64,000 nt of DNA from Eubacteriales bacterium (lineage in GTDB: Bacteria > Bacillota > Clostridia > Oscillospirales > UBA644): assembly GCA_045603745.1 (NCBI GenBank), contig JAZUMQ010000052.1, positions 19,280-83,279 on the forward strand. The letters run 5' to 3'. The position numbers were made by a program, and so were the translations under genes. A model generated the notes under the pieces. It ran no database searches. It saw only the letters and a program-made list of their open reading frames with translations, and was not told where the DNA came from. The number at the start of each line of letters is the position of its first letter. Position 1 is the first letter of the stretch. Positions 6,043 to 28,832 of this stretch are shown one piece after another.

Positions 6043-7110
6043 ATGGAAACATTTAAGTTAGGCGAACTGTTCTGCGGCCCCGGTGGAATTGCGTGCGGAG
6101 CTCTAAGGGCAAAAAGCGATGACGGCTCCTTCACCATTGAGCATGCTTGGGCAAATGATTATGATGCGGATACATGCGAAACATATCGTAAGAACATCTG
6201 CCCCGAATCCCCCGAAACTGTACATTGCGGTGATGTGCGAGAATTAGATATTCAAAAGCTTGGAGAGATCACGGCCTTCTGCTATGGGTTCCCGTGCAAC
6301 AGCTTCTCTAATGTTGGTAAGCACCAAGGCTTCGAAAACGAGAAGTTTGGGCAACTCTACTGGTATGGTATCGAAGTGCTTAAAACATATCAACCCAAGT
6401 GGTTTGTTGCAGAAAATGTGTCAGGAATACGTTCTGCTGGCTCAGGTGATTTTGAAATAATCCTAAACGATATGCGTGCAGCAGGTTATAAATTGAATGT
6501 GCACCTGTACAAAGCGGAAGAATATGGCGTTCCGCAAACAAGACATAGAGTAATCATTGTTGGAATTCATGAGGATGAGTCTGTGAAATACAGAGTTCCC
6601 GATCCAGCGGTATATGCTAAGTGCGATGTAACCGCGAGAACTGCGTTGGCTAACATTCCCGAGAATGCTCCCAACAATGAAGTAAGAAAACTCGCTGATA
6701 AGGTTGTCAGAAGACTGTCATATATTAAGCCCGGTGAAAATGTATGGCAAGCAGAGGAAAGACTCGGTGAAGATTTCCCGCGCGAATTAAAGATCCATAC
6801 AAAAACCAAGATCAGTCAAATCTATCGCAAGCTTGACCCCGATAAACCAGCCTACACTGTAACAGCCGCAGGTGGTGGCGGTACGTTTATGTATCACTGG
6901 ACAGATCGAGAATTGACAAATAGAGAGAGAGCAAGAATACAAACCTTTCCCGATGATTATGAATTCGTCGGTAACTACAGCAGTGTGAGAAAACAAATTG
7001 GCATGGCTGTACCGTGCAAATTGTCTGAAGTGGTTATAACCGCTGTATTAAACAGCTTCGCAGGGATTGATTATCCTTGGATCAAAGCCAATTTGGAGGA
7101 AGATGAATGA
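6043..7110 (+). CDS. DNA (cytosine-5)-methyltransferase
   Basis: Motif I LFCGPGG, IV GFPC, VI ENV, VIII PQTRHR, IX-X RERARIQTFP / QIGMAV. Confidence 0.95.
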   Translation: METFKLGELFCGPGGIACGALRAKSDDGSFTIEHAWANDYDADTCETYRKNICPESPETVHCGDVRELDIQKLGEITAFCYGFPCNSFSNVGKHQGFENEKFGQLYWYGIEVLKTYQPKWFVAENVSGIRSAGSGDFEIILNDMRAAGYKLNVHLYKAEEYGVPQTRHRVIIVGIHEDESVKYRVPDPAVYAKCDVTARTALANIPENAPNNEVRKLADKVVRRLSYIKPGENVWQAEERLGEDFPRELKIHTKTKISQIYRKLDPDKPAYTVTAAGGGGTFMYHWTDRELTNRERARIQTFPDDYEFVGNYSSVRKQIGMAVPCKLSEVVITAVLNSFAGIDYPWIKANLEEDE

Positions 7111-8186
7111 TTCCAAAAATTGATGATATTACCGGAATCCCAACATTTATTACATCGGATTTTGATGAACCAGTTTTATATACGCCTGCGAGAACAGAGT
7201 TTTCGCGGCCTTGTTCGTCTTTGAAGATTGTTACTGCTTTTACGGATTGTGACCGTATATCTACTCATATGATCAAACTTGCGGAAGGCATGAAAAACAG
7301 CCGTCTGATTAAAGGCCTTTCGGTTGAAATCATACTTGGTATGACCAAGTCCAGCCTTTCTCAAAAGAAGCACGAAGATATCTGTCGTATGATTCGATTT
7401 CTTAATTCGTCCAAAGGAATGCCCAAAATTTCGTGCAGATATATTTGCCAAGGTCCGGAAGTGCATTCGAAAGTGTATATTTGGATATATCCGGATGAGC
7501 ATGTAGGCGACATGCCTTATATCGCTTTCTGTGGTTCTTTGAATTATACCATGAATGCTTTTTACAAGCGCAGAGAGTCTGTTAGCATGTGTAACTCTCT
7601 TGAGGCGTATTGGTACTATAAGAATCTTCTGCCCGATACAATTGATTGTTTTGATCCTTCAGTTTCTGAAAAATTGAAGAATGTTATCAACAACACCGCA
7701 GAAAATTTTGTTGAGCCGGATAACTCTGAAAAAGACTATCTTGTTTACGATAAGGAAACGCCCATCGATACGCTCAATGTTTCTCTTTTGAGAGCAGATG
7801 GCAGTGATACGGGATATGGCTCTGGTATCAACTGGGGCATCCGTAAAAACGGAACAAAGCGTGATCAGAATCAAGCCTATATTCCGTATAATCACAAAGA
7901 TAAAAAGGTAGGCTTTTTTCCGGATAGAGAAAATCCCGATGATGAAAACTGCCCGATGTTTAAGGTCATCACCAAAGATTTTGGATCTTTCCATATGCGA
8001 ATGGCACAGCAAGGAAACAAAGCCTTACACAGTGTAGAAAGTAACGCAATTTTGGGTGAATGGATTCGCAAAAGAATCGGGGCTCCTGCAGGTGGCTATG
8101 TTACCAAACAAATGTTGGAGCTCTATGGAAAGACTTATGTTACTTTCAGAAAGTATGAGGACGGTACGTATCTTTTGGATTTTTAA
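7107..8186 (+). CDS. NgoFVII-like PLD-family restriction endonuclease
   Basis: HSKVY and GSLNYT PLD motifs; C-terminal SGINWG...RDQNQAYIP; ATGA overlap with the MTase. Confidence 0.8.
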   Translation: MIPKIDDITGIPTFITSDFDEPVLYTPARTEFSRPCSSLKIVTAFTDCDRISTHMIKLAEGMKNSRLIKGLSVEIILGMTKSSLSQKKHEDICRMIRFLNSSKGMPKISCRYICQGPEVHSKVYIWIYPDEHVGDMPYIAFCGSLNYTMNAFYKRRESVSMCNSLEAYWYYKNLLPDTIDCFDPSVSEKLKNVINNTAENFVEPDNSEKDYLVYDKETPIDTLNVSLLRADGSDTGYGSGINWGIRKNGTKRDQNQAYIPYNHKDKKVGFFPDRENPDDENCPMFKVITKDFGSFHMRMAQQGNKALHSVESNAILGEWIRKRIGAPAGGYVTKQMLELYGKTYVTFRKYEDGTYLLDF

Positions 8187-8207
8187 TCGTTGAGTTGGAG
8201 AAAAATT

Positions 8208-9158
8208 ATGCCGAGTGTATGTAGTCTGTTTAGCGGAATAGGTGGAATTGACCTTGGCTTTATGCAAGCCGGGTTTGACATCGTATGGGCTAATGAAAAA
8301 GATGCCGCCGCTTGCAGAACCTATCGGCATAATTTAAAAGACTCTCCACTGGTAGAGGGTGATATTCATCAAATTCCGATTGAAAGTATCCCCAATGGGT
8401 TTGATGTTTTAACAGCGGGTTTTCCTTGCCAGCCGTTTTCCATCGCCGGCTTACAAAAAGGTTTCAAAGATAGAGATGGGAACCACTTTTTTCGAATAGC
8501 ACAGATTGTTGATATTAAACGTCCACCGATTGTATTTCTTGAAAATGTTCCTAATTTAATGGAACACGACAACGGAAAGACATTCCTCGTAATTTTTAAC
8601 GAACTAGCACAACTGGGATATTCGATATATTACCGAGTTCTTGCATCCAACGAATATGGAAACCTTCCGCAAATTAGAAAACGCATTTATATTGTTGCGA
8701 TTCGTGAAGATATGGACAATCGTCTATACCAATATCCAGAGCCGATAGAACTCACTTTGAAATCCAGCGACATTATCAATCGCTCCGTAAAGCAACATGA
8801 CATTTACTACTATACAGAAGGAAAAATGTATGATCGATTAGTTGCACACATGAAGGATCGCAAAGCAATTTACAGAATAACTGACACAGAAGTGCGCTGG
8901 ACGAAGAATCAAATGTGTCCAACCCTTACTGCAAATATGGGAACACACAAAGATAGAGTTCATGTCGTATGGGACGACTACGGAATACGAAAGATGACGT
9001 TGAGAGAAGGTCTGGACTTTCAAGGCTTTCCGAAAGAATTTTATTTTCCAAATACAATAACCATTGATGATGCGTATAAGCAAATCGGAAATACAGTTTC
9101 GGTGCCCGTAATCTCAAGACTCGCTACCAAAATCAAAGAAGTGCTTATGGGGGAATAG
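8208..9158 (+). CDS. second DNA (cytosine-5)-methyltransferase
   Basis: LFSGIGG, GFPCQPFS, ENV, PQIRKR, TLTANMG TRD, QIGNTV. Confidence 0.95.
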   Translation: MPSVCSLFSGIGGIDLGFMQAGFDIVWANEKDAAACRTYRHNLKDSPLVEGDIHQIPIESIPNGFDVLTAGFPCQPFSIAGLQKGFKDRDGNHFFRIAQIVDIKRPPIVFLENVPNLMEHDNGKTFLVIFNELAQLGYSIYYRVLASNEYGNLPQIRKRIYIVAIREDMDNRLYQYPEPIELTLKSSDIINRSVKQHDIYYYTEGKMYDRLVAHMKDRKAIYRITDTEVRWTKNQMCPTLTANMGTHKDRVHVVWDDYGIRKMTLREGLDFQGFPKEFYFPNTITIDDAYKQIGNTVSVPVISRLATKIKEVLMGE

Positions 9159-9161
9159 AGT

Positions 9162-9797
9162 ATGTGGAATAGAAACATTACTGGTTTAGATGCGGAGGGT
9201 ACTTTTAGAAGCCTTAACGGCGCCGCAGATGAAAATGTTTTTATAGGAAAAGCAAGCAAGGCAGGCTTCTTTTGCTTCTTCAAGGTGTGGCGCGATATGC
9301 CATATGATGCTGTGCTTGATTACAAACATATTCTTTACCGTGTTGAGGTTAAAGGTTCTTCATCTGGTACATATAACCTCACTCGTGGAGGCAGATCCGG
9401 CGCACAGATTGACCGTCATGCAGAAAACAGAACCCGAAGAATTGAACGAGGAGATTGTGATTTTGTTGTTTGCGTTGATAGTAAGAACGGGGATTGTTTC
9501 ATATTGCCGGTTGATATTTTGGATATAACAAATCGTCAAAATTTTGGAGCAAGGGCGCTCGAACCTTTTAAGGAAAAATGGCAGTTGTTTATTCATAACG
9601 ATGCTACTCGCCTTACCGGAGCACAAACTCGTGATGGGCTTTTAGCATTATCGTTGACGGAGCTTCAATCTATTGCAACTCGCATTGGGGCAATTGTGCC
9701 TGCAGGAGATTTTCGACCCAAGGGCACAACAGGGCTCAGAATAAGCGATGAAAAAGAAAAAACAATACTTGCGATTTGGTACAAACTTTGTGAATAA
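9162..9797 (+). CDS. PD-(D/E)XK-type endonuclease, possible partner of the second MTase
   Basis: PYDAV...RVEVKG catalytic pattern; 3 bp downstream of the MTase. Confidence 0.6.
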   Translation: MWNRNITGLDAEGTFRSLNGAADENVFIGKASKAGFFCFFKVWRDMPYDAVLDYKHILYRVEVKGSSSGTYNLTRGGRSGAQIDRHAENRTRRIERGDCDFVVCVDSKNGDCFILPVDILDITNRQNFGARALEPFKEKWQLFIHNDATRLTGAQTRDGLLALSLTELQSIATRIGAIVPAGDFRPKGTTGLRISDEKEKTILAIWYKLCE

Positions 9798-10049: not shown

Positions 10050-10144
10050 TATGACTGAGGTAGTCGCTGTTATGGTATCACTGAAAGAAATCAAATAAAA
10101 GACGCATTAAATAACTCTCTATGATGAGAATTAAGGGGAATAAA

Positions 10145-11245
10145 ATGAAAAGTTTAAGTAATGAAATAGCAAAACTTTTTAATATTGCAACAATTGATAA
10201 AACTCAGAAAATTTGGTTCTTTAGAACCAATGGTGGTGCATATTATCATGATTATTGTATTAATAATTTCATTGGCTTAGGATGGGATAAAATTGATAAA
10301 CAATTGATACTGTCAGACAGGTCTCCTGAGACAAAAAAAGAAATTATAGAGGATATCTATCCAGATGAGAAGCGTCCTGGATTGATATTGGGTCAAATGA
10401 ATACTTTCTATAATAAAATGCATTTAGGGGATTTGGTTTTGATTCCTTCTGAAGGAGGGAAAGAAGTATCCATTGGTGTATTAGGGGATTTTGTAGATGA
10501 AATCTATCACTTGGAGAATGAAACTGAATATCCTCAATGCGAATATATTCACAAAAGAAGAGTTGATTGGATTAAAAAGGTGGATTTATATCAAGATGTA
10601 TATCTGTTTAGAGCATTACGCGGACAACAGACTATCTCTGATATAACGGATTGCGCAGGCTTGGTACTTAGGAACTTATATCCAGTGTATATTTCTAATA
10701 ATTCTTTGCACTTGACATTGAAAAAAACGTCGGATGTAGATTATTCATTACATACGAATGTTTCACTGTGTTCATCTATTATTGCTATTTCTGAGGAGAT
10801 TTCCCGGATATATAATGGAGAAAATTTTGAAGATTCGTTGAAAATCAAAACTGCTGTGGGTTCCCCTGGATTTATAGAGATAATTGCTGATTTAATACCC
10901 GAAGCCACAATTGCCATTGGTGTTATCTTCAATTATATTGTTGGTAAAATTAAATCTGATGGCTCTGCTAGCGGGCTCCTTGGGGTGTTTGGATCAGTCA
11001 ATTCTCTTATAAATGACCGCACAAATAGAAAAAAGATAGATGCTGAGACAGAAAGAATTAAAGCAGAAACAGAAAAAATCAAAGCAGAGACACAATTGCT
11101 GAAGCAACAATTGTCCGCACCGGATCTCAAAAAAAATGAAAGTTCGATTATGAACATACAAACAGAATGCAACAATATTGTCAAAGAATCTTTAGCGGCT
11201 GGAATTGTTTGTGAGCTTCAGTCGCCTGAAGATAAAGTTAGTTGA
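10145..11245 (+). CDS. hypothetical protein with Mrr/McrB-type N-terminal reader-like domain and C-terminal coiled coil
   Basis: IGLGW...FYNKMHLGDLVLIP...RRVDW pattern; C-terminal KIKAETE repeats. Confidence 0.55.
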   Translation: MKSLSNEIAKLFNIATIDKTQKIWFFRTNGGAYYHDYCINNFIGLGWDKIDKQLILSDRSPETKKEIIEDIYPDEKRPGLILGQMNTFYNKMHLGDLVLIPSEGGKEVSIGVLGDFVDEIYHLENETEYPQCEYIHKRRVDWIKKVDLYQDVYLFRALRGQQTISDITDCAGLVLRNLYPVYISNNSLHLTLKKTSDVDYSLHTNVSLCSSIIAISEEISRIYNGENFEDSLKIKTAVGSPGFIEIIADLIPEATIAIGVIFNYIVGKIKSDGSASGLLGVFGSVNSLINDRTNRKKIDAETERIKAETEKIKAETQLLKQQLSAPDLKKNESSIMNIQTECNNIVKESLAAGIVCELQSPEDKVS

Positions 11246-11287
11246 CTTTTTGTTATTACATCATAAAATTTATGAGGAAGTCTAATT

Positions 11288-11896
11288 GTGTATAAGAACA
11301 AAGATACAGGAAAACTGATTGCTTTTGACGGTCCTAATGGTGCAGGAAAATCCACACTAATAAGGGCGGTACAAGCTAGGTTGTCAGAAATGAACATTAA
11401 TGTGCACGTAACAAAAGAACCGAGTGATTCGAAAATTGGAACGTTTACACGTAATGTTGCAGAATTGTTTTCTGGCAATGCTTTGGCCTGTTTAGTGGCG
11501 GCAGATAGATATGCTCATGTCGAAAGAGAGATTTTGCCGCAATTAAAACAAGGAACAATTGTTATTACGGACCGATATGTTTTATCCTCACTAATATTAC
11601 AACCTATGGATGGCGTTGATATTGATTTTATAGAAAAAATAAATAACGAGATTGTTCTACCTGATCTGCAGATTGCAGTTTGGGCAAATGATGAAATTTT
11701 GCAAAAACGTCTATTAGAAAGAGACAATCTTACGCGATTTGAGAAAAATAATAGATCGTTTGAGGAATTGGAGAATATGGAAAAAGGAGTTCGTATTATC
11801 CAAGAATGGGCGGTGCCTGTTGTCAATGTTTTTAATGATAGTGATTTAGAAAAAAATGTTGCTCTTGTAGTAGAAAACATATTGTCTATAATATAG
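11288..11896 (+). CDS. tmk: thymidylate (dTMP) kinase family protein
   Basis: IAFDGPNGAGKST P-loop, KEP, DRY motifs; island-borne paralogue. Confidence 0.85.
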   Translation: MYKNKDTGKLIAFDGPNGAGKSTLIRAVQARLSEMNINVHVTKEPSDSKIGTFTRNVAELFSGNALACLVAADRYAHVEREILPQLKQGTIVITDRYVLSSLILQPMDGVDIDFIEKINNEIVLPDLQIAVWANDEILQKRLLERDNLTRFEKNNRSFEELENMEKGVRIIQEWAVPVVNVFNDSDLEKNVALVVENILSII

Positions 11897-11925
11897 GTTA
11901 AACATTACATTGGAAGGGAGACGCT

Positions 11926-13254
11926 ATGAAAGAAGTTTTTTATTTAATTAATTCTCCGTTGTTTTTAGATAAAACAATTAATGAAGACTCTTTGCCGCCA
12001 TTAGGGCAAGGCTATATTGCGACCAGTTTGAAGAATAGTGGCATTGATGTTTCCTTAATTGATTGTGTTAAAGAAAAGATAACAGCCTTGGAAATAATAA
12101 ATAAGATTAATAGTGATCGTCCCAAGTATGTCGGTATTAATATTTTCACACAAAACTACGAAATAGTGAAAAGCATTATCGAAAGCATAACAGTGCAATG
12201 TATACTATTTATAGGCGGACAAGCAACTAAGTTTCTTTATCAGGATATCATAAATTGGCGTACAAATAATGAATGTTTTGTTATTATTGGAGAGGGTGAA
12301 TATATAATACCTACTATATGCATGAAAACATGCAAACAGAAACCGATATTGTGCGAAAACAATATTACAGTTTATGTGGTTGATAAAGATTCGGGGTACT
12401 ATCCTCGAGATATATCAGCCATTAAGCTTGATAGGACATTTTTTAAAAACGAACTCATGGAGAATCATTATGGGGAACAGGAGGTTGCCATAATAACATC
12501 TAGGGGATGTATTTTTAATTGTGCTTTTTGCGGTGGCGCAAGGAGTCTAAACGCTGAAATAGAACCTAGGATAAGAGGACAGCAAAGTATAGAAAATGAA
12601 ATATCTGACTTGTTAGCATTATATCCCAAGTTACAGAGCGTGCGAGTTCTTGACGATTTGTTTTTGCGTTCCAAAAATAGTATTCAAATTGCCATTAACG
12701 TTTTCTCTAAATATCCAAGAATAACATGGCGTGGAATGGCACATGTTCTATCCATAAAAAACGCTATTGATTATTTAAATGATCTTAAAAAAAGCGGATG
12801 CAAAGAATTATTTATTGGCATAGAATCTGGATCCCCAAGAATCAGAAATAAAATAAACAAACAGGGTTCGTGTGAAGATGTACTGTTTGTAGCCAAAAAA
12901 ATATTGGAAGCAGGTATAGATTTAAAAGGATATTTTATATTGGGTTTTCCTGACGAGGATGAGAGCGATTTTCGTCTTACATTGAATCTAGCACTAGCCA
13001 TAAAGGGTCTCGCAGACCAAGCCAATGCTACATTCAGAACTAGTGTATTTCAATTTAGACCTTATCATGGAACAAAACTATATAATGAATTGATAGAAAA
13101 TGGCGTTGAGGTTAACGAGTGTAAACCCAATGACGATATTACTTCAATGATAGGTCGAGGTTCATTTAATTTTTCTTCAGGGAACTATAGCTTAGAAAAT
13201 AACGAAGTGTTAAATCGTTATATTGATGCCACGCAAAGGTTGAAAGAAATATGA
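11926..13254 (+). CDS. B12-binding radical SAM protein
   Basis: PPLGQGYIA cobalamin-domain start, GEGE, TSRGCIFNCAFC (CxxxCxxC), GIESGS, FILGFP. Confidence 0.9.
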   Translation: MKEVFYLINSPLFLDKTINEDSLPPLGQGYIATSLKNSGIDVSLIDCVKEKITALEIINKINSDRPKYVGINIFTQNYEIVKSIIESITVQCILFIGGQATKFLYQDIINWRTNNECFVIIGEGEYIIPTICMKTCKQKPILCENNITVYVVDKDSGYYPRDISAIKLDRTFFKNELMENHYGEQEVAIITSRGCIFNCAFCGGARSLNAEIEPRIRGQQSIENEISDLLALYPKLQSVRVLDDLFLRSKNSIQIAINVFSKYPRITWRGMAHVLSIKNAIDYLNDLKKSGCKELFIGIESGSPRIRNKINKQGSCEDVLFVAKKILEAGIDLKGYFILGFPDEDESDFRLTLNLALAIKGLADQANATFRTSVFQFRPYHGTKLYNELIENGVEVNECKPNDDITSMIGRGSFNFSSGNYSLENNEVLNRYIDATQRLKEI

Positions 13255-13811
13255 AAACTTTAGAGAAAATAAGATATTGTGAAAAATGCAAACTCTGTTG
13301 CAATCAAAGACCTCTTATGGATCGGTGTTCAGAGTGTCAAGTTTTGTGGGTAGGATTATCGGCAAAAAAAGCAATGTATGATGATGAGATACCCCTGTCA
13401 ATTAAAACGAATAGTGGGGCAGTAATACACGAAGTGGAAATGTTGTTAGAAGATGTTAAGTGTTACAAAACTAACTTAGTGAAATGCCTTCCGTTGGATG
13501 AAAAAAGTAAACTCAGATATCCAAACCAGAAAGAGATAGATGCGTGTTTTGTTAACTTAGAGGAAGAAATAGCAGAATTATCTCCTAAGATAGTTTTCCT
13601 TTTGGGGGAAAAAGTTTATTCATCGGTTGGACGACATTTAAATATTGTTTTTGATAAGCTAGATGGCTTCAATTATAACTATGTGCAGCACGGAAATGTT
13701 TGTTATGTTCCCATTCAGCATCCATCATACATCTATGTGTATAAGAGAAAGCACATGAGTGAGTATATCGATGGAATAAAAAAAATAGCCGATCTTCTGC
13801 TTAGCGATTAA
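13251..13811 (+). CDS. uracil-DNA glycosylase superfamily protein (family 4-like, atypical motif A)
   Basis: CEKC, TNLVKCLP, EIDAC, LLGE, HPSY; GLSA in place of GEAPG. Confidence 0.8.
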   Translation: MKTLEKIRYCEKCKLCCNQRPLMDRCSECQVLWVGLSAKKAMYDDEIPLSIKTNSGAVIHEVEMLLEDVKCYKTNLVKCLPLDEKSKLRYPNQKEIDACFVNLEEEIAELSPKIVFLLGEKVYSSVGRHLNIVFDKLDGFNYNYVQHGNVCYVPIQHPSYIYVYKRKHMSEYIDGIKKIADLLLSD

Positions 13812-13836: not shown

Positions 13837-16638
13837 ATGAAAGAAAAGTGGACTGACAATCAGCAAAAGGCAATAGATACAATAGAAAAGAACATGCAAA
13901 TTGTGGCATGTGCTGGATCTGGAAAAACAACCACAATGGTTGCGCATATTTTAAAATTGCTTGACCAGGAAGATGTGTCTCCTGAAAATATAGTAGCTAT
14001 TACATACACAGAGAAAGCAGCGGCATCCCTTAAACATAAAGTCTATGAGGAATACGAAAAGAAAAATGGAAATCTCGAAGGGTTAGCCAACATGTTCATT
14101 GGGACTATCCATGGATTTTGTTTAAACATGTTACAGAGTGCTACTGAGGAGTATAAATCCTTTGAGACCCTTAATGAAGTGCAAACAAGACTTTTTATAA
14201 AGAAGACACGCCGTACTAATGGTATAATGGATGTATATTATCATCCAGCTAACAAGAAAGCACCGTATAAAATGATTACTGAGTTAAGCAGTGCCGAAAG
14301 GTGGTCTGAAGTTATAGGAGCTTATAAAACGTTTCTTGATATTGGTAGGGAATACGGTATTGAAAAGCTTCCTATAAACCAACAATCTCACATATCGCAA
14401 TATGAGCAAACATTAGCAGATAATAGCTTTTTTGATTTTACATCTATTATTACAACCACTCTTCGAAAATTACAAGAAGGATGCTTTGATGATAATGTAG
14501 TTTCAAATGTAAAATATTTAATCGTTGATGAATATCAAGATGTAAATATTGCTCAGGAAAAAATTATTAGGTATTTTGCAGATAGGAATACATACATTTG
14601 TGTTGTTGGAGATGATGATCAAACTATCTATCAATGGCGTGGTAGCAATTTAACATTTATAAAAGACTTTGCTTCCCGATACAACGATGTGGAAAAGATA
14701 GATCTTGATACTAATTTTAGAAGTAGCGAGGGAATTACAGAAATATCCAAGCAAGTTATTAATCACAATAAAAACCGCATTGATAAAAATATGAAAAGTA
14801 ATAATTCTCAGGTATATGAGTCTGGTGATATTATTACATATGAATTTGATGATAAAGACTCAGAAATTCAATTTATTGTCAATAAGATTCAGCAACTTGT
14901 AGGTACAACATATTCAAGAAAGGGTCATGCGTTTGGGCTCGACTATGATGATATGGTGATACTTGTAAGTTCAGTAAAAAAAGTGCCTGAATTAATAGAT
15001 GCGTTAGAAAAAAATAATATCGATTTTATTGTGGAAGGAACAAAAAATCTATTCGATTCAAATGAGGTAAAGGTTCTATGTGATACTTTTGCACTTCTAT
15101 TTGATGTGGTTGATGAGAATCGGAATTCTGTTGCCATATCTAAGGTAAATGTTACCGAGATACCTATGGATTTGATTTCTCGTTGGAGAAACTATTCTCC
15201 ATTGTCCGATGAAGAAGTTAAACGATGTGTTGCGAATTTCTTGATGTATCCCTTTACTACGGATGAGTATGAGTTTACAATTCAGGGAACAATAAAAAAA
15301 CTTTTTCGTGAACTTAGGCTGTTTACTGTTGATGATGAGAAGGTTCTGTACAACTGGGGAAAGTTTACGGAAATGGTAAATGATTTTGAAAAAATCAACT
15401 TAAAAATGGCGACAATGTATCGATTGATGGCGTTCAAATCTTTCTTGATTTACGATGCTCCTAATTTGTATCCGGAGGGTTGGCTGTCTCCTGGTTTTAA
15501 AGCCATTAAATGCTTGCGAATAATGACGTACCATCAATCAAAGGGATTGGAGTATCCCGTTGTGTTTATGCCATTTTTGACGAAATATTCGATTTTTCCA
15601 CAGAAAAATCCGGGAGGAACTAATGCATGGGGCATATTTAATGACGATACAATCAGGCAACAATATGCAGATGATGACGAAAGCGTTAGACGAGTATTTT
15701 ATGTTGGTATGACAAGAAGTGAAAAGTATTTGTTTTTAACTCGTTCAGATAATGTTTCTGATACAGGAAAAACCCAATATAAGATTCCCGCATTTCCATT
15801 CGTTGAGGCAAAGCACTCTCCATATAAAGAAACAAGGCTGTTTTGGGATAAGGAATATGAAAAGACTGACGAAAAGAAGTTTTCCGTTGATGAAATAATC
15901 ACATTGAATTTTTCATTACTCAAAGATCTTTTTGATTGTCCTTATAAATTTAAGATGACTAATGTGTTCGGGTTTTGTTCGCCGTTAAATATTCGAATGG
16001 GATATGGACGTTCAATCCATAACATGTTGGATTATATTCATCGCAATTACGAAAAAATTGACTACAATGATCCGAAGATAATAGAGCGCATTGTAAAAAA
16101 ATATTTGCACTTACCATATGGCTCTCCCAAACTTTATGAAGCGATGACTGAGAAAGCAACAAGAAATTTGAAGGCATACATTGATAATAATAGTACCAAA
16201 TTCAAATATATTAAGTTTTCAGAAAAAAGCATCGACTTTAACATAGATGAATACATGTTCATTAATGGTAGAATTGACCTGGTTAGAGACGAATTGAATC
16301 ACACTATAACATTGGTTGATTTTAAGTCAAGTAGCGAGGTGCTTTCGAGGGATCAGATAAAAAATCAGCTTATGGTCTATGTTTTGGGATATGAAAGTCT
16401 CACGGGAGAGAAAGTAGACTATATTGAATCCTATGATTTTAATAACAGTAATCCTATTACCATAGAGTTGGTAGATGGAGATAGGAAAAAATTTATTGAG
16501 AAGTTGGAAGAATGCGAAAAAAACATAAAGAAGAGTAATTACCCCAAAGCTACAGAATTAGATGTTACTAAAACCGAAGCTTTTTGCAAAGAGTTGAAGT
16601 GTGATTACTATTATGATTGTCATCCAATAGAAAGGTGA
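13837..16638 (+). CDS. UvrD/Rep SF1 helicase fused to a C-terminal PD-(D/E)XK nuclease
   Basis: ACAGSGKT, VDEYQD, VGDDDQ, NFRS, HQSKGLE, YVGMTR; GRIDL...VDFKS. Confidence 0.9.
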   Translation: MKEKWTDNQQKAIDTIEKNMQIVACAGSGKTTTMVAHILKLLDQEDVSPENIVAITYTEKAAASLKHKVYEEYEKKNGNLEGLANMFIGTIHGFCLNMLQSATEEYKSFETLNEVQTRLFIKKTRRTNGIMDVYYHPANKKAPYKMITELSSAERWSEVIGAYKTFLDIGREYGIEKLPINQQSHISQYEQTLADNSFFDFTSIITTTLRKLQEGCFDDNVVSNVKYLIVDEYQDVNIAQEKIIRYFADRNTYICVVGDDDQTIYQWRGSNLTFIKDFASRYNDVEKIDLDTNFRSSEGITEISKQVINHNKNRIDKNMKSNNSQVYESGDIITYEFDDKDSEIQFIVNKIQQLVGTTYSRKGHAFGLDYDDMVILVSSVKKVPELIDALEKNNIDFIVEGTKNLFDSNEVKVLCDTFALLFDVVDENRNSVAISKVNVTEIPMDLISRWRNYSPLSDEEVKRCVANFLMYPFTTDEYEFTIQGTIKKLFRELRLFTVDDEKVLYNWGKFTEMVNDFEKINLKMATMYRLMAFKSFLIYDAPNLYPEGWLSPGFKAIKCLRIMTYHQSKGLEYPVVFMPFLTKYSIFPQKNPGGTNAWGIFNDDTIRQQYADDDESVRRVFYVGMTRSEKYLFLTRSDNVSDTGKTQYKIPAFPFVEAKHSPYKETRLFWDKEYEKTDEKKFSVDEIITLNFSLLKDLFDCPYKFKMTNVFGFCSPLNIRMGYGRSIHNMLDYIHRNYEKIDYNDPKIIERIVKKYLHLPYGSPKLYEAMTEKATRNLKAYIDNNSTKFKYIKFSEKSIDFNIDEYMFINGRIDLVRDELNHTITLVDFKSSSEVLSRDQIKNQLMVYVLGYESLTGEKVDYIESYDFNNSNPITIELVDGDRKKFIEKLEECEKNIKKSNYPKATELDVTKTEAFCKELKCDYYYDCHPIER

Positions 16639-16642
16639 TCGG

Positions 16643-17968
16643 ATGAGCGTGAAAGAAATAGTTGAAGAAATTAAATCAAAAGATTCGTTACCAGAATACT
16701 GGGATTTCAAAGGAAACGACCAGCGTGAGCATGTACATTCCATGATTAAATACCCTGCCGTTATGGTTCCGAATATGCAGGGTGAGATATTTGATATTAT
16801 TTTGAGACATGATAATACCATTTCTAATGTTCTGGATCCGTTTATGGGATCAGGTACTATTTTGGTAGAGGGGTATTTGAGGGGATTGGATGTTATAGGT
16901 ATTGACATAAATCCCTTGTCATTTCTCGCGGTAAAGGTTAAACTTCAAAGATATGCTATAAAAACTTTACAGGACAAGTCTAAAGATTTGATAACGCGAA
17001 TTCAAGATGATTGTAATACAGATTGCTTTGAATTTGATAATATCAAAAAATGGTACAAAAACGATGTAATAAAGTCATTAAGTAAAATAAGAAGATGCAT
17101 ACTCTTAGAACCTGATAAAAAATACAGGCAGTTGTTTTGGGTAACTTTTGCCGAAATAGCCAAACAAGCAGATAATTCAAGGACTAGTACTTTCAAATTG
17201 CACATAAAAGAGCAGAGCCAGATAGATGATTGGAATTATGATTGTATAGAAAAATTCAAATTTAAGTTGTTGGAGAACATTACGGCTTTGAAAGATTTTA
17301 GGGAGATGCAAGCAAACCGCACTTGTGATAAAAAAGTTGCTGTTAAATACGGAGATTCTCTAAAGCTTTTGGCGGATAAACGGTATTTTAAAGATGGTAG
17401 TGTTGATTTAGTCATAACATCTCCTCCGTATGGAGATAATGCTACTACTATAACATATGGTCAATTTTCAGTGTTGCCGTTGAAATGGATTCCTTTGGAG
17501 GACATTGATAGCAAAATAAACAATAGTGTCATTGAAACATTGTCTAAGATCGATAGCGATAGTTTGGGTGGTAAAAATTACACTGTTCAATCCATCATTG
17601 AGTCCCAACTTTATTCTTACTCTCAGCCTTTTTCACAATTGTACAATCAATTGACAGATGCAATGCAAATAGATAAGGCTCGTAAAGTTGCTAGCTTTCT
17701 TTTGGATTTTGAAAAGATCGTAGCTTCATTACATAAAATTGTAAAAGAAAATAAATTTATGGTGTTTACAGTTGGGAATCGCCATGTGAATAAATTAGAG
17801 GTTCCATTTGACGAAATATTAGAAACGATTGCTGAACACTATGGATTTAAAATTGTTTATGACTTTAGAAGAAATATACTAAAAAACAAAAACTATTCAG
17901 ATACGAAGGCTCAAAATTTTAAAACTATAAAAAAAGAAACTATACTTGTATTGCAGAAGAGAAGCTGA
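16643..17968 (+). CDS. amino-type DNA methyltransferase (probably N4-cytosine)
   Basis: KYPA, DPFMGSGT (motif I) preceding TSPPY (motif IV). Confidence 0.85.
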   Translation: MSVKEIVEEIKSKDSLPEYWDFKGNDQREHVHSMIKYPAVMVPNMQGEIFDIILRHDNTISNVLDPFMGSGTILVEGYLRGLDVIGIDINPLSFLAVKVKLQRYAIKTLQDKSKDLITRIQDDCNTDCFEFDNIKKWYKNDVIKSLSKIRRCILLEPDKKYRQLFWVTFAEIAKQADNSRTSTFKLHIKEQSQIDDWNYDCIEKFKFKLLENITALKDFREMQANRTCDKKVAVKYGDSLKLLADKRYFKDGSVDLVITSPPYGDNATTITYGQFSVLPLKWIPLEDIDSKINNSVIETLSKIDSDSLGGKNYTVQSIIESQLYSYSQPFSQLYNQLTDAMQIDKARKVASFLLDFEKIVASLHKIVKENKFMVFTVGNRHVNKLEVPFDEILETIAEHYGFKIVYDFRRNILKNKNYSDTKAQNFKTIKKETILVLQKRS

Positions 17969-18426: not shown

Positions 18427-19224
18427 ATGAATTTTTATGATAATGAAGAAAAAATAATCAATACATTTCGAGATATTCCAAAATCAGAAATATATTTTGC
18501 TACACAAACTGCAATGTGCTTCAAAATTTTTAATTCTATTTACAAAAGCAAGCATAAGGATAAATGGATTAACAATTCTGGAAAATCAGATCCACCTCCT
18601 GATTTCTATTCAGAAGAATTCGGATTAATGATGGAAGTAATGCGCGTTGATGATCACGCCCATTACAATGACAAAGGTGTTTTGATCAATCCCATCAATA
18701 TTCGCGAAAGTATAATACAAAAGGAAATCCGCGATAAAATCAAATCAGGAAACCCTGATATTGACCTCTCAACCATAGATATTGTAATTAATGCCGCATC
18801 AGGACTCTCGTCTAATGAAGACCATAACTATCGGTATTATTATGATAGCTTCAAAAGAGTATTGGAAAAGCATATAGGCGGCATTTCGCTTTACAGAAAA
18901 AATCATCCTAACAAGAAATTAGTGTTTTTTGTCTTTGATGAATCTACTGGTTATGTTGTTGTGGATAATAAAGATTTGGTGGAGCGAGGACCAGTTGCGT
19001 TAGAATGGTTTAAGGCGAATCCATTATGGCATTTTTGGGACGAACGATTTATAAGCGTTTTTAAAGATGCTGATATAGACTATTTGATTTGGTTCACACC
19101 TTATAAAATGTTTCATGGTGCGCCGATTCAACCACCTAAGGTTTGTGTTTTTGATGTAAAAAAACTAAAAAAACACAAAACAAAGCAGTATCCGATAAAT
19201 TATATTATTAGTTCGGAAGCGTAA
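18427..19224 (+). CDS. hypothetical protein, possible PD-(D/E)XK-like nuclease
   Basis: AT-rich 265-aa ORF; PPDF...MEVMRVDD. Confidence 0.5.
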   Translation: MNFYDNEEKIINTFRDIPKSEIYFATQTAMCFKIFNSIYKSKHKDKWINNSGKSDPPPDFYSEEFGLMMEVMRVDDHAHYNDKGVLINPINIRESIIQKEIRDKIKSGNPDIDLSTIDIVINAASGLSSNEDHNYRYYYDSFKRVLEKHIGGISLYRKNHPNKKLVFFVFDESTGYVVVDNKDLVERGPVALEWFKANPLWHFWDERFISVFKDADIDYLIWFTPYKMFHGAPIQPPKVCVFDVKKLKKHKTKQYPINYIISSEA

Positions 19225-19676: not shown

Positions 19677-20918
19677 ATGAAAAATGTATTTTTACTTGGG
19701 AATGGCTTCGATTTGCACCATATGCTACCGACCAAATATTTTGATTTTATGTGTGTTGCAGATTACTTGAAAAACAATCTTTTAGTCTCGCCACTTATTG
19801 CAGGGCATGTTTTTGCCAAATGCGAAAACAATGAAAATATAAAAAGGTGTTATAATTCTCACAAAGAAGTTTTCGATAGTCTTGAAATAGATTTAAAAAA
19901 AGCTAATGAAATCACAGCATCGCTAAACAATAATATGTGGTTTGACTATTTTTGGAATACTCTTGATATGGATTCCGGATGGATAGATTTTGAGAAAGAG
20001 ATTTCCACTGTTATCACCATTCTTGACGAACTTATAGATCAAGAGGAAAAAACTGTTTATTTGTCAGCACATGAATTATTGCCTGCGTTTATCTTATCGC
20101 ATTTTAGGTTTTTCATAGACATTTATGAAGATGCAGATATATGTCCTGGCGATAGTTTTGATATTAAGATCGAATATCTTAAGGAATATCCTCATAATTC
20201 TGATATTTTTGTAGTAGATAAGAATAAAGTTTTTGAGGTGCTATATAGACAACTTATTGATTTCAGTAAAGCGTTGAGCCTATACTTAAGGTGTTTTATT
20301 GAGAACGCTTTCACTTTATTACATAAGGACAATTATACAAATTGTCACAGAATTGATTTGTTGAACATGGCGGATAATGCTGTATCTTTTAATTATACCA
20401 ATACGTTGGAAAGGTTTTACTTTAATAAAAAGGCGTATCATATTCATGGGCTGGTTGAGAATGGAAATATTGTGTTGGGCGTAAATCCCAATGAATCCGA
20501 TGATATTGGAACCGACAATACAGCTTTGATAAAATTCAAAAAGTATTATCAGCGTGAAGTGTTTGGTACGGCAAAAGAGTATATAAAATGGTATAGAGAT
20601 ACAATAGTGGCAGGAACCGACTACAGAGTTATCACAATCGGTCATTCTCTTGATGAAACGGATAAAGATATATTATCAGATATGTTTCTTAATGCAAAGG
20701 AAATTTATATCACGCATTATGATGAAGAGAGTAAAGACGATTATATAAAGAACATTATAAAAGTATTTGGCAATGCCGGTTATAATAAATTCAAGAAAGA
20801 AAAAGGATTGGAATTCGTGCTTTTATCAAATATTGAGCAGCTGAGAGAAATAATTCAATCTGATGAAATTGATTGGAGTTTTGAAGGTTGTGCGAATGAG
20901 CAAATCGTGATTGTTTAA
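19677..20918 (+). CDS. AbiH-family (SIR2-like) abortive infection protein
   Basis: LLGNGFDL, SFNYT, HIHG, IGHSL motifs. Confidence 0.8.
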   Translation: MKNVFLLGNGFDLHHMLPTKYFDFMCVADYLKNNLLVSPLIAGHVFAKCENNENIKRCYNSHKEVFDSLEIDLKKANEITASLNNNMWFDYFWNTLDMDSGWIDFEKEISTVITILDELIDQEEKTVYLSAHELLPAFILSHFRFFIDIYEDADICPGDSFDIKIEYLKEYPHNSDIFVVDKNKVFEVLYRQLIDFSKALSLYLRCFIENAFTLLHKDNYTNCHRIDLLNMADNAVSFNYTNTLERFYFNKKAYHIHGLVENGNIVLGVNPNESDDIGTDNTALIKFKKYYQREVFGTAKEYIKWYRDTIVAGTDYRVITIGHSLDETDKDILSDMFLNAKEIYITHYDEESKDDYIKNIIKVFGNAGYNKFKKEKGLEFVLLSNIEQLREIIQSDEIDWSFEGCANEQIVIV

Positions 20919-25403: not shown

Positions 25404-26585
25404 TCATTCAAGTGACTGAACGTAATACGGTTTGTTGTCTCTCAGAACAGCATAAATAATGTTGGTCATTTTTCGTGTCGCGTGACCGATAACATTCATA
25501 TACGGTTTACCTTCGGCAAGTTTCTTTTGCAGAAATGCTTTCATATACGGATCATGCATAACTGCAGATACAGAGGCCATCCAAATTGCACGGCGAAGAT
25601 ATGGTGATCCACGCTTAGACATATGATTACGCGTCCCGGTGAATTCTCCCGACTGCTTGACAGTCGGATCCAGACCGGCAAATGCCGCCAGTTTAGCTGC
25701 CGAATCAAACCGGTGGATATCTCCGATTTCACTGAAGATTGTTGCACCGAGTGCCGGTCCAATCCCGGGAATCGTTGTAATGCAGACATCAAACTTGGAG
25801 AAAAGCTCAGCAATCTTAGCTTCGAGTTCCGCGATCTGCTGCTCTGCAAAACGGATGTGTTCCATATGATGCTTGATCAGAAGTCCCATCGTGTTGTATT
25901 CCAGAACGATTCCAAAAGAGTTCTCGGCAAGGTTGCGGATCTGCTTTGCCTTTTCCTCACCGAAACGATTGCGACTTGCCTGGGCAACCAACTGCGTCAA
26001 TTTTTCTGTGTCCAGCGACAGGATTTCTTCCGGTGTGGAATAATTGCGCAGAATCTCTGAGGAAGTCAGGCCAAAAATGTCGGTAAACAGTCTTTCATAT
26101 TCCGGGAATGACTGATCCAGCAGAGCGATTACTTTGTGCTTCAGGTCGGCAGTCATATCTACGATGAACAGTCTTGCACGGCAAAGCTCTCTCAGCTCGT
26201 ACAAATCGGACGGCGGCATCCCGCCTTCTGTGTATCTGCCAAAGCGTATAACCTCGGCAATGATGAATGAATCGTGTTCATCGTTCTTGATTTGGCGGAT
26301 ATACATTCCGCGCAGTGCATTTGATTGAATCGGGTTTAGTACGTGTACGGTATAACCGTGCTTTTTCAGATTGGAGTATAACGCTAACCAGTAGTGGCTT
26401 GTCGATTCCATTCCGATAGTGAAGTCAGAAGGATTCGGACTGATGGCATTCAGAATAGCTGTAAATTTTCTGAATCCATCCGCATCGTTCTTGAAGTTGA
26501 ATGCTTTGTGTACGAGCGCGCCGGAATCATCGATAACAATGGCTTCATGACTACGCTTAGCGATATCCACACCAACAATAAACAT
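25404..26585 (-). CDS. IS110-family transposase/recombinase
   Basis: GVDIAK, GMEST, KNDEHD (DEDD); TIPGIG, AGLDP..QSG, SKRGSPYLR. Confidence 0.95.
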   Translation of the reverse strand: MFIVGVDIAKRSHEAIVIDDSGALVHKAFNFKNDADGFRKFTAILNAISPNPSDFTIGMESTSHYWLALYSNLKKHGYTVHVLNPIQSNALRGMYIRQIKNDEHDSFIIAEVIRFGRYTEGGMPPSDLYELRELCRARLFIVDMTADLKHKVIALLDQSFPEYERLFTDIFGLTSSEILRNYSTPEEILSLDTEKLTQLVAQASRNRFGEEKAKQIRNLAENSFGIVLEYNTMGLLIKHHMEHIRFAEQQIAELEAKIAELFSKFDVCITTIPGIGPALGATIFSEIGDIHRFDSAAKLAAFAGLDPTVKQSGEFTGTRNHMSKRGSPYLRRAIWMASVSAVMHDPYMKAFLQKKLAEGKPYMNVIGHATRKMTNIIYAVLRDNKPYYVQSLE

Positions 26586-26624
26586 GCTCAAAATTTCCTT
26601 TCATTCAGATTACGGACATCGTCC

Positions 26625-26885
26625 TCACATCCCTATGGCTCACAACCTGCTTCGACATTAGAGGAAAGCACAAGGCTCCGACATCCGGCCGATAAATGCA
26701 TACCCATAGGGCAGAGGTCTCAAACTGCTTCAAGTGAACACAGAGTCACAGGGTTAATAGAAGAGAATCCTCTGTCCGTTGGTTTTATTATATCATATCC
26801 GAATGTAATCCGGAACTGATACCGTGGAATTTACTGTGTATGTTTATTCAAAGAATATTCAACATTTGAGGCAGATCCCGCCTCG
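26625..26885 (-). ncRNA. putative IS110 bridge RNA
   Basis: Two stem-closed loops in the non-coding end upstream of the transposase, containing segments that match the target and donor junctions. Confidence 0.6.
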
Positions 26886-27145
26886 ACTTATATTATAGCA
26901 GGTTAAAGGAAGGCTGGCTCACACTCGTGTTTTGCCGCCTTCCGATCACATCGGGCGGCAACAGCCGACCGAAAAAGCACCGTTTTAGGGCGTTTTTGAA
27001 AGGAAAACGGAGGCAACCGATAAAACCAGCATTGGTGCCCAGTTTTGCGATTCACACTCGAAAAGTGTGAAAATAATCGAAAATTGCCCCATATTACGCC
27101 CTTTTTACGGTGTGAAGAATGAGAAATACAGAAAGGAAGATCAAA

Positions 27146-27571
27146 ATGAAAGAACAAAACGAAAAGCTGAGAACCACCATTTATATTGACGAAGAGCTCG
27201 TCAAGCGCGCGGAAATTCTCTTCGGAGAAGCCAAGGTCAACTCCTTCTCCGCCTTCGCTTCCAAGGCAATCGAAAGCTATATCACAAAGCTTGTCATCGA
27301 TAAGAACGGCGACCTCCTCTCGGACGAGATCAGGAAAGCGATCAAGAATGAGCTCGGTCCGATCAACACGAGAGTGTCAAAGGGACTCTATCGTTACGCA
27401 GTCGAGATCGATACCATCGTTCAAATTATTGCTGAGGTGTATGGATTCAACCCGAAATTCGTTGAAGGATATCGCAAGAAGGCGGAAGGTCACGTTTACA
27501 AGCTCAAGGGCAAGATCGATTACGCGGCACTGATGGATCCGAAGTTCGCTGAGGATGAGGAGGACGAATGA
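27146..27571 (+). CDS. RHH-type protein resembling relaxosome accessory proteins
   Basis: RTTIYIDEELV...SFSAFASKAIESY ribbon-helix-helix pattern. Confidence 0.55.
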   Translation: MKEQNEKLRTTIYIDEELVKRAEILFGEAKVNSFSAFASKAIESYITKLVIDKNGDLLSDEIRKAIKNELGPINTRVSKGLYRYAVEIDTIVQIIAEVYGFNPKFVEGYRKKAEGHVYKLKGKIDYAALMDPKFAEDEEDE

Positions 27572-27656
27572 TGAAAATTAAATTCTTTCTTCCGATTCTC
27601 TCTGGACTTGTGAAAAAGTTGTGGTATAGTGTGTTGTTGATGAGAAAGGAGTTGAT

Positions 27657-28832
27657 GTGATGCCAAAGAAACGTCCTGCGGGCGACGGAATGGTTCGTCA
27701 GAAGAAGCGCGGTCAATGGGAAGCGCGCATCGTCGTCGGTCACAAGGATGACGGCAAGCCGATCTACCGTTACGTCTACGGCAAAACGCAGAAGGAGGTG
27801 CTCGATAAGCTTCATCAGCGCATCGAGGACTACCGCGGTGTGGAGCTGACCGAGGACAGCAAGATGACGCTGGGTGAGTGGCTTGACAAGTGGCTGAACG
27901 AGTATATGCTTTTCACCATCCGCGAGAGCACGTGGAAGGCTTATGAAACCACCGTGCGCCTTCACATCAAGCCTTACCTTGGCGACAAGCAGATCGCCTT
28001 CGTCACCACCGCCGACGTGCAGAGGATGTACAACAAGCTCAAGCGTAGCGGACGGTCGGAAGCGCATCCAATCCACGGACACAAGCTGTCCGACAGCTAC
28101 GTGCGTAAGATCCATATGATGCTTCACGAAGCGATGGACACGGCAGTGAAGGAACGGCTCATCGTGAAGAACCCGACAAACGGCACGACGATCCCGAAAA
28201 CCAACTATCCGCCCAAGCAGATCCTCACCGATGCACAGCTTGAAAAGTTTATTGCCGTGGTAATGGAGGACGAGCTGTGGCGCGACTTCTTCTACACCGA
28301 GCTGACAACGGGACTTCGTCGCGGCGAGATCTGCGGTCTGCGGTGGACTGACTTCAACGAGTCGACAGGACACCTCAAGGTGTCGCGCACGGTGCTTGTA
28401 AAGACGGGCGGAGGACTGACCTGGGGCGACACCAAGACCGAAACCGGTATGCGAACGATCCTCCTGCCACCGAGCACCGCCGAGATGCTTCGGGAGCGGA
28501 AGAAAAATTCATACAGCGAGTGGATCTTCCCGAATCTCTACAAGCCCGAGCAGCCCCTCTATCCCGGCTCAGCCTATAATCGTATGAAGGTGCTCTTAAA
28601 GAAAGCGGAGCTTCCGCTGATCCGCTTCCACGATCTGCGCCACACCTTCGCCACCCACGCGCTGACGGGCGGTGTGGATGCCAAGACGCTGTCAAAGATC
28701 CTCGGTCACACCAACGCAAGCTTCACTCTCGACACCTACACCCACGTTACAACCGATATGCAGAAGCGTGCGTCAAAGATCGTGGGCGGGTTCTTGGATG
28801 ACTTGATAATCAAGGAGGATGACAATGGCTAA
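27657..28832 (+). CDS. tyrosine integrase 1
   Basis: Arm-binding N-terminus, TGLRRGE, FHDLRHT, LGH, YTH. Confidence 0.95.
   Translation: MMPKKRPAGDGMVRQKKRGQWEARIVVGHKDDGKPIYRYVYGKTQKEVLDKLHQRIEDYRGVELTEDSKMTLGEWLDKWLNEYMLFTIRESTWKAYETTVRLHIKPYLGDKQIAFVTTADVQRMYNKLKRSGRSEAHPIHGHKLSDSYVRKIHMMLHEAMDTAVKERLIVKNPTNGTTIPKTNYPPKQILTDAQLEKFIAVVMEDELWRDFFYTELTTGLRRGEICGLRWTDFNESTGHLKVSRTVLVKTGGGLTWGDTKTETGMRTILLPPSTAEMLRERKKNSYSEWIFPNLYKPEQPLYPGSAYNRMKVLLKKAELPLIRFHDLRHTFATHALTGGVDAKTLSKILGHTNASFTLDTYTHVTTDMQKRASKIVGGFLDDLIIKEDDNG

Follow-up and report, generated by a model that had tools for sequence, protein, structure and literature searches.

A mobile radical SAM and glycosylase-fold gene pair with an optional thymidylate kinase-like partner, a possible undescribed variant of nucleotide-analogue defence

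Introduction

Some prokaryotic viperins have adjacent nucleotide kinases, and like the cassette reported here they bring together an optional kinase and a radical SAM enzyme whose proposed product is a nucleotide analogue active against viruses. The ddh-ribonucleotides made by viperins terminate RNA chains, according to the relevant passages of PMC10732462. Viperins are single-domain proteins, whereas our cassette enzyme adds a B12-binding domain, reaches a Z score of only 14.2 against the viperin fold, and has a glycosylase-fold partner. The anti-phage system Ophion also includes a radical SAM protein among its three genes; the partners named in the part of the preprint that we use (10.1101/2025.09.30.679545) are PHP and PRTase, unlike the glycosylase and kinase of the cassette. 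Two B12-type radical SAM enzymes, OxsB (oxetanocin) and AlsB (albucidin), are described as acting on deoxynucleotides in the section of PMC13331322 on which we draw; OxsB, however, is 731 aa long, is only 16% identical to the cassette radical SAM enzyme, and has a phosphohydrolase partner.

On the glycosylase side, Brig1, Brig2, and Dag are likewise UDG- or HhH-fold glycosylases that serve in defence on AT-rich mobile DNA. They act alone on phage-modified bases, with no radical SAM or kinase partner mentioned in the portion of the preprint cited here (10.1101/2025.10.29.685425), whereas the cassette protein resembles family 4 and is linked to a radical SAM partner. Its fold, Fe–S cysteines, and TN and HPS motifs are shared with family 4 and 5 UDGs and with UdgX, yet its NCBIfam scores against these families all fall far below cut-off. 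UdgX with its SplB-like neighbour also places a radical SAM gene beside a UDG gene (PMC3765255, in the excerpt used), but the radical SAM of the cassette is of the B12 type and no DUF4130 partner was seen.

Our literature searches turned up no description of the cassette gene set, and a prior mention (e.g. in a 2013 survey of DNA base modification) is possible. No such system appeared at the first two places per search term in the supplement of PMC13092281. The PDC-M51 preprint (10.1101/2024.01.29.577857) was covered by term search, and PDC-M51 itself was judged by its models.

Results

A foreign cassette in a defence island

The window, i.e. the whole 64,000-nucleotide stretch of DNA that we analysed, contains three real open reading frames, all on the forward strand, encoding 202, 442, and 186 aa; a 29-bp gap separates the first two and an ATGA overlap joins the last two. 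The features of the cassette and its surroundings are listed here.

6043-9797: two C5 methylases flanking an NgoFVII-like PLD nuclease and a 211-aa PD-(D/E)XK-like gene
10121-11245: 374-aa ORF without a Pfam match; its N-terminal 150 aa resemble the PADLOC candidate PDC-S02 (7e-14)
11242..11269, + strand: candidate sigma70-like promoter (10/12 match, weak) in the intergenic gap 5' of the kinase gene
11288..11896, + strand: dTMP-kinase-fold protein of a cassette-specific clade, optional part (Pfam, TIGR00041, Val70)
11926..13254, + strand: B12-binding-domain radical SAM enzyme, core part (Pfam; C195, C199, C202)
13251..13811, + strand: family-4-like UDG-fold protein, core part (motif A GLSAK, TNLVKC, HPSY)
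13837-17968: fusion of a UvrD helicase with a PD-(D/E)XK/Cas4-like nuclease; N4/N6 methylase gene directly after it
18427-19224: 265-aa ORF that Pfam, PADLOC, and NCBIfam leave unmatched
19677-20918: AbiH gene
25404-30285: transposase-like ORF and two tandem integrase-like ORFs, recognized by motif; right end of the island

Sigma70-like sites occur in the region at chance level (15 found as compared to 18 expected from shuffles). The cassette proteins match Pfam Thymidylate_kin (3e-31), B12-binding (3e-12) together with Radical_SAM (7e-16), and UDG (2e-14). Profile matches of the flanking genes give two C5 methylases, an NgoFVII-like nuclease, and a PD-(D/E)XK-like gene upstream, and the UvrD-nuclease, N4/N6 methylase, and AbiH downstream. 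The original prediction, which had described three co-oriented AT-rich genes with this spacing, set between restriction-modification genes and a helicase-nuclease/methyltransferase pair, agrees with these results. It had also noted that GLSA replaces GEAPG in the glycosylase while HPSY and the family-4-type cysteines are kept, as we find (residues 10, 13, 79, and 99).

The GC content of the cassette stretch is 34.5%, as compared to 46.5% for the genome, and is matched by 4 of 634 equal-sized genome windows; we did not find the stretch in 60 relatives of the source genome. Since the genome also encodes a second thymidylate kinase and two more UDG-family genes, the cassette genes are accessory copies. 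In locus L090, the same island is 87-92% identical at the DNA level and window bases about 11315-13364 are deleted, a loss that covers the kinase and radical SAM genes and the 5' end of the UDG gene; the cassette is thus a separable unit. It is a foreign, separately deletable gene set. We rejected the neighbouring genes of the window as system parts: they are still present, at 91-93% identity, in L090, and in the 160 loci from genomes and metagenomes, no intact cassette other than this one has the 374-aa ORF, helicase-nuclease, or methylase beside it. The 374-aa ORF has a hydrophobic stretch and a coiled coil after its PDC-S02-like part, and is intact in L090.

A conserved pair with an optional kinase

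A single-sequence search of genome contigs gave no matches; an alignment search found relatives, and we analysed the best 80 of 321 in GTDB. These best 80 come from Bacillota, Bacteroidota, Patescibacteria (with small genomes), Campylobacterota, and others. The UDG-like gene adjoins the radical SAM gene in 79 of the 80 loci, the remaining locus stopping at a contig edge. Both genes are intact in 73 loci and 2 loci lie at contig edges; a broken radical SAM gene accompanies an intact UDG gene in 4, and the reverse is found once (L018, where the radical SAM and kinase genes are intact and the neighbouring UDG gene has decayed). The metagenome set, built around the UDG-like gene from the best 80 of 371 matches with much redundancy, has both genes intact in 64 loci, with 7 cut by an edge and the radical SAM gene broken in 4 and absent from 5. 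Two proteins are in-frame fusions of radical SAM and UDG (L048, 609 aa; P0263, 645 aa). We also found the UDG-like gene without a radical SAM gene in L099, L100, L139, L169, and two phage contigs. Each core gene is thus found without an intact partner, so neither seems constitutively toxic alone. A toxin–antidote polarity was considered and rejected: across the 80 loci, 5 radical SAM genes are broken versus 1 UDG gene, roughly the ratio expected from their lengths. The phage contigs (L234:4983-5402 and L235:4995-5429) encode a short stand-alone UDG-like member with a GISNK motif and without the Fe–S cysteines, possibly a counter-defence protein.

The kinase gene is present in 33 of the 80 GTDB loci (on the opposite strand in three) and absent from 47, a count that includes a few loci with a contig end close upstream. 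No cassette-type kinase was found elsewhere in the genome in 10 of 10 kinase-less genomes tested (best score 99 bits). The core is therefore the radical SAM and UDG-fold pair, with an optional kinase. Of the trio originally proposed, the conserved linkage stands, with the radical SAM and UDG genes co-occurring as expected, but the fixed set of three genes does not; nor can the kinase be an essential activation step, as had been suggested, given its absence from more than half of the loci.

The cassette family is rare: among 398 other genomes in the class, 1 has it, and a sample of 400 others from the phylum of the Bacteroidota carrier G360 gave 0. In 26-27 Bacteroidota loci, an XRE-IrrE (RmrA-like) gene and a PIN-like gene precede the pair. 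Loci of this Bacteroidota type (L055:4103-6539) often add a membrane-anchored protein of no known family, which recurs downstream in some Bacillota loci. In L006, L007, L012, L021, and L022, the cassette lies just 3' of a recurring RNA-methyltransferase-like gene (cluster 27), which we take to be rlmD, an integration hotspot.

Defence-gene neighbourhood and mobility

For 81 loci, we compared the two genes closest to the cassette on either side with the PADLOC models, taking each protein family once (247 proteins in all) and a threshold of E<=1e-30. Matches were obtained for 35 of the 247 neighbours, five of them probable cross-hits or members of the cassette's own upstream unit, as compared to 4 of 135 ORFs in a control set, taxonomically narrower, that was drawn from 18 arbitrarily chosen regions in related genomes only (Fisher p 3e-4, treating kin loci as independent). 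All four control matches are apparent housekeeping cross-hits. The neighbour matches comprise Gabija, Kiwa, type I and II restriction-modification, DarTG, AbiE, HNH, SoFic, and PDC candidates. By hand count, a clear defence gene lies among the closest scanned neighbours in at least 21 of the 81 loci, a lower bound because repeated families were scanned once, and 60 were without one. Cassettes are found on prophages and in restriction-modification islands, and this mobile gene set occurs in several phyla. The anticipated defence association is borne out, and the cassette is real, conserved, mobile, and defence-enriched. It likely defends against phage.

Active-site features of the three proteins

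The structure model of the radical SAM enzyme (pLDDT 92) has an N-terminal B12-binding Rossmann domain and a radical SAM barrel, both above Pfam cut-off, and the three-Cys motif C195/C199/C202 is kept in 85 of 88 alignment rows. No named NCBIfam family is reached at cut-off (best HpnJ, 81 of 578 bits). The best fold matches are AprD4 (Z 27.5), MgmA (25.8), and OxsB (23.5), which span the full length, and viperin (14.2). AprD4 is not known to depend on B12. Methylation, which the original prediction named as common among cobalamin-dependent enzymes of this kind, is not supported, the closest structural match being the dehydratase AprD4. Any cobalamin used by the enzyme would come by import, since CobS was not found in the source genome (93% complete); the genome encodes four further B12-binding proteins. 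Many invariant Arg and aromatic residues would suit a phosphorylated nucleotide substrate. No DNA-binding domain was detected in the enzyme by Pfam or in the structure model. Prediction of a radical SAM–UDG complex, at a score of 0.00, speaks neither for nor against an interaction.

The UDG-fold protein (model pLDDT 83) finds its best structural match in family 4 (Foldseek; 4zby, E 9e-10; the family 5 structure 2d3y ranks lower). Its C10, C13, C79, and C99 align with the Fe–S cysteines of solved family 4 enzymes; these cysteines are absent in six distant members, mostly Patescibacteria-like. Motif A is GLSAK instead of GE(A/G)PG (Leu36 in 76 of 78 sequences, Ser37 in all 78), so that the family-4 catalytic Glu is missing. 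Ser37 occupies the third position of the motif, where families 1-3 carry Asp or Asn, and is invariant in 78/78 together with N75, H157, P158, S159, and Y164. N75 and H157 align with N91 and H178 of UdgX, which stabilise the leaving base as described in the cited part of PMC10359453. Family 5 UDGs are active with a GLAPA motif (same source and PMC4787834, each in part). Because GLSAK resembles that active motif, the glycosylase need not be dead, and GLSA is not supported as a sign of lost catalysis; the protein may excise a base. The family-4 pocket Phe is replaced by Leu49, which suggests a target base other than uracil. None of the three nearest families accommodates the protein: for family 4, motif A differs and TIGR00758 gives 44 of 125 bits; for family 5 (UdgB), GLSAK and HPSYIY have just GL and HPS in common with GLAPA and HPSPLN; and for UdgX, the protein is without GEQPG and the KRRIH R-loop and scores 29 of 190 bits with TIGR03914. 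A shorter insert with a conserved Lys87 stands at the KRRIH loop position.

The kinase belongs to TIGR00041 (dTMP kinase; 109 bits, cut-off 83) and keeps the P-loop and DRY motifs, with the kinase tree having long branches and poor resolution. Phe66 of the Staphylococcus aureus TMK is the aromatic residue that stacks on the base. This aromatic residue, a test for dTMP kinase, is absent from the cassette kinases, all 37 of which have Val70 in its place, and the change points to a non-standard base. The P-loop Glu is Asn17 in 34 of 37 cassette kinases; replacement of a Tyr by Leu104 is not universal, L056 and L062 retaining Tyr.

Partner swaps in related cassettes

Streptomyces phage SF3 and 12 actinomycete plasmids encode a radical SAM enzyme 28-31% identical to that of the window, and in a quick tree with sparse outgroups the Streptomyces and cassette enzymes form one clade against 13 outgroups (SH-aLRT 99.7). 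More distant plasmid enzymes (H13, H56, H57, and H63; 25-28% identity) lie in unrelated biosynthetic clusters; we rejected them as relatives and used them as outgroups. No UDG gene was found beside the Streptomyces-clade radical SAM gene in the loci examined. The gene 5' of it encodes an AlkA/HhH-GPD-like protein (2jhn, E 6e-5; PRK10308, 2e-5), annotated 'hypothetical', that keeps the helix-hairpin-helix GPWTA and the Asp motif PxxDLAVR of active AlkA enzymes; in AlkA, the latter motif is catalytic. All 12 plasmid records that contain a close, full-length radical SAM gene have this gene next to it, as do 8 of 9 viral loci, several of them redundant, the ninth beginning at the radical SAM gene. 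A kinase of the same type and a NUDIX gene are found in all nine viral loci of the clade. In further viral contigs and a Streptomyces plasmid, a Val70-type kinase lies between a SPASM-like radical SAM enzyme and an exonuclease III-like gene, with MazG in the last of the three cassettes.

L213:3913-6385: SPASM-like radical SAM, kinase, exonuclease III-like
L214:3691-6445: SPASM-like radical SAM, kinase, exonuclease III-like
L238:2871-5795: SPASM-like radical SAM, kinase, exonuclease III-like

The UDG, AlkA-like, and ExoIII-like partners mean that unrelated DNA-repair folds and pool-sanitising enzymes have been recruited repeatedly. The swaps of repair folds and of NUDIX and MazG lead us to infer an abnormal deoxynucleotide as the product, one that ends up in DNA, and they strengthen the theme of nucleotide and DNA chemistry in the original prediction. 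In a Streptomyces phage-plasmid (L200:1287-4268), an AlkA-like gene accompanies a different, non-B12 radical SAM gene and an aminoglycoside-phosphotransferase-like gene.

Comparison with existing models

Viperin identity was rejected, with no viperin match in PADLOC or NCBIfam at E<=0.01 and with the extra B12-binding domain. PADLOC gave weak matches to PDC-M51A/B (radical SAM enzyme 43 bits, residues 15-256; kinase 48 bits). In 137 of 301 genomes, however, a common unrelated radical SAM enzyme reaches 91-165 bits with the PDC-M51A model; since it outscores the cassette enzyme, the match of the latter is at the superfamily level, and on model scores we rejected PDC-M51 membership. No PADLOC model matched the UDG-like gene, and the ESM Atlas returned only generic names for the queried proteins, bar a weak DUF5919 lead. 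As the original prediction anticipated, no existing PADLOC model fits and we found no matching described system, PDC-M51, viperin, UdgX, and Brig all being set apart. The cassette would be an apparently undescribed variant of nucleotide-analogue defence.

Discussion

Our preferred reading, which we hold tentatively and at slightly under even confidence, is one of making and excising. The radical SAM enzyme would turn a deoxynucleotide, probably a pyrimidine, into an abnormal form, as OxsB and AlsB show B12 radical SAM enzymes able to act on such substrates (PMC13331322, in the section cited above). With help from the cassette kinase, or from host enzymes in loci that lack one, the abnormal nucleotide would become a triphosphate, polymerases would build it into DNA, and the glycosylase would remove the abnormal base. 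In the host chromosome, such sites would be scattered, repaired, and tolerated; in fast-replicating phage DNA, abasic sites would pile up to a lethal load. Against this reading stand the dispensability of the kinase (absent from 47/80, with no replacement in 10/10 genomes), the occurrence of each core gene at least once without an intact partner, the closeness of the fold to AprD4, the failure to find CobS, the Patescibacteria carriers, and the loss of the family-4 Glu.

In a reading that we consider unlikely, the radical SAM enzyme would modify a base directly in DNA, the glycosylase fold would flip or excise it, and the kinase and NUDIX would recycle the released nucleotide. A kinase found in only 33/80 loci beside a near-obligate, sometimes fused, DNA-binding glycosylase fold favours it, as does the neighbourhood of SplB-like radical SAM, UDG, and DUF4130 for which thymine modification has been suggested (PMC3765255, in the excerpt used); yet the radical SAM enzyme showed no sign of a DNA-binding domain, and the NUDIX and MazG partners indicate a triphosphate pool. 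It is quite improbable, in our view, that a Brig-like sensor excises a modified phage base and that the radical SAM enzyme and kinase convert the nucleotide thus released into a toxin or a signal on which a membrane effector acts. UDG-fold Brig1 and Brig2 and HhH-fold Dag do attack modified phage bases (10.1101/2025.10.29.685425, in the portion cited), the cassettes swap the same two folds, and membrane-anchored genes recur near the pair (cluster 8 in 18 of 85 clustered loci; an 8xMP-family protein). Most loci, including the cassette of the window, nevertheless have no membrane partner, cluster 8 has only the weak DUF5919 lead in the ESM Atlas (0.87), and the NUDIX, MazG, and ExoIII partners would be unexplained.

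A role apart from phage, either as an antibacterial nucleoside-analogue pathway with self-resistance or as a module for repair of unusual lesions, on mobile elements, strikes us as poorly probable. The nearest solved folds (AprD4, MgmA, and OxsB) are indeed biosynthetic enzymes, in 60/81 loci none of the closest genes is clearly a defence gene, and a repair gene can protect inside a toxin locus (PMC13648612, in the part used); locus clustering, however, revealed no conserved exporter or further biosynthetic gene, and the defence enrichment (p 3e-4) and carriage on prophages and in restriction-modification islands speak against it. A restriction-modification-like scheme, in which the radical SAM enzyme protects and the glycosylase kills, sits poorly with intact UDG genes whose radical SAM neighbour is broken or missing in 4/80 GTDB and 8/80 metagenome loci.

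If the make-and-excise reading is true, nucleotide-analogue immunity would reach DNA, beyond the RNA targeted by viperin, and a B12-type radical SAM enzyme, joined to base excision, would have its first anti-phage role as far as we could find. It is rather unlikely, though worth stating, that this mechanism is categorically new and that the cassette is one branch of a wider undescribed class joining radical SAM, kinase, and repair enzymes. The make-and-excise reading would also imply a natural nucleotide analogue not seen before, together with a glycosylase that recognizes it, both of use as antiviral leads or DNA-labelling tools, and the two-gene core is small enough for direct testing.
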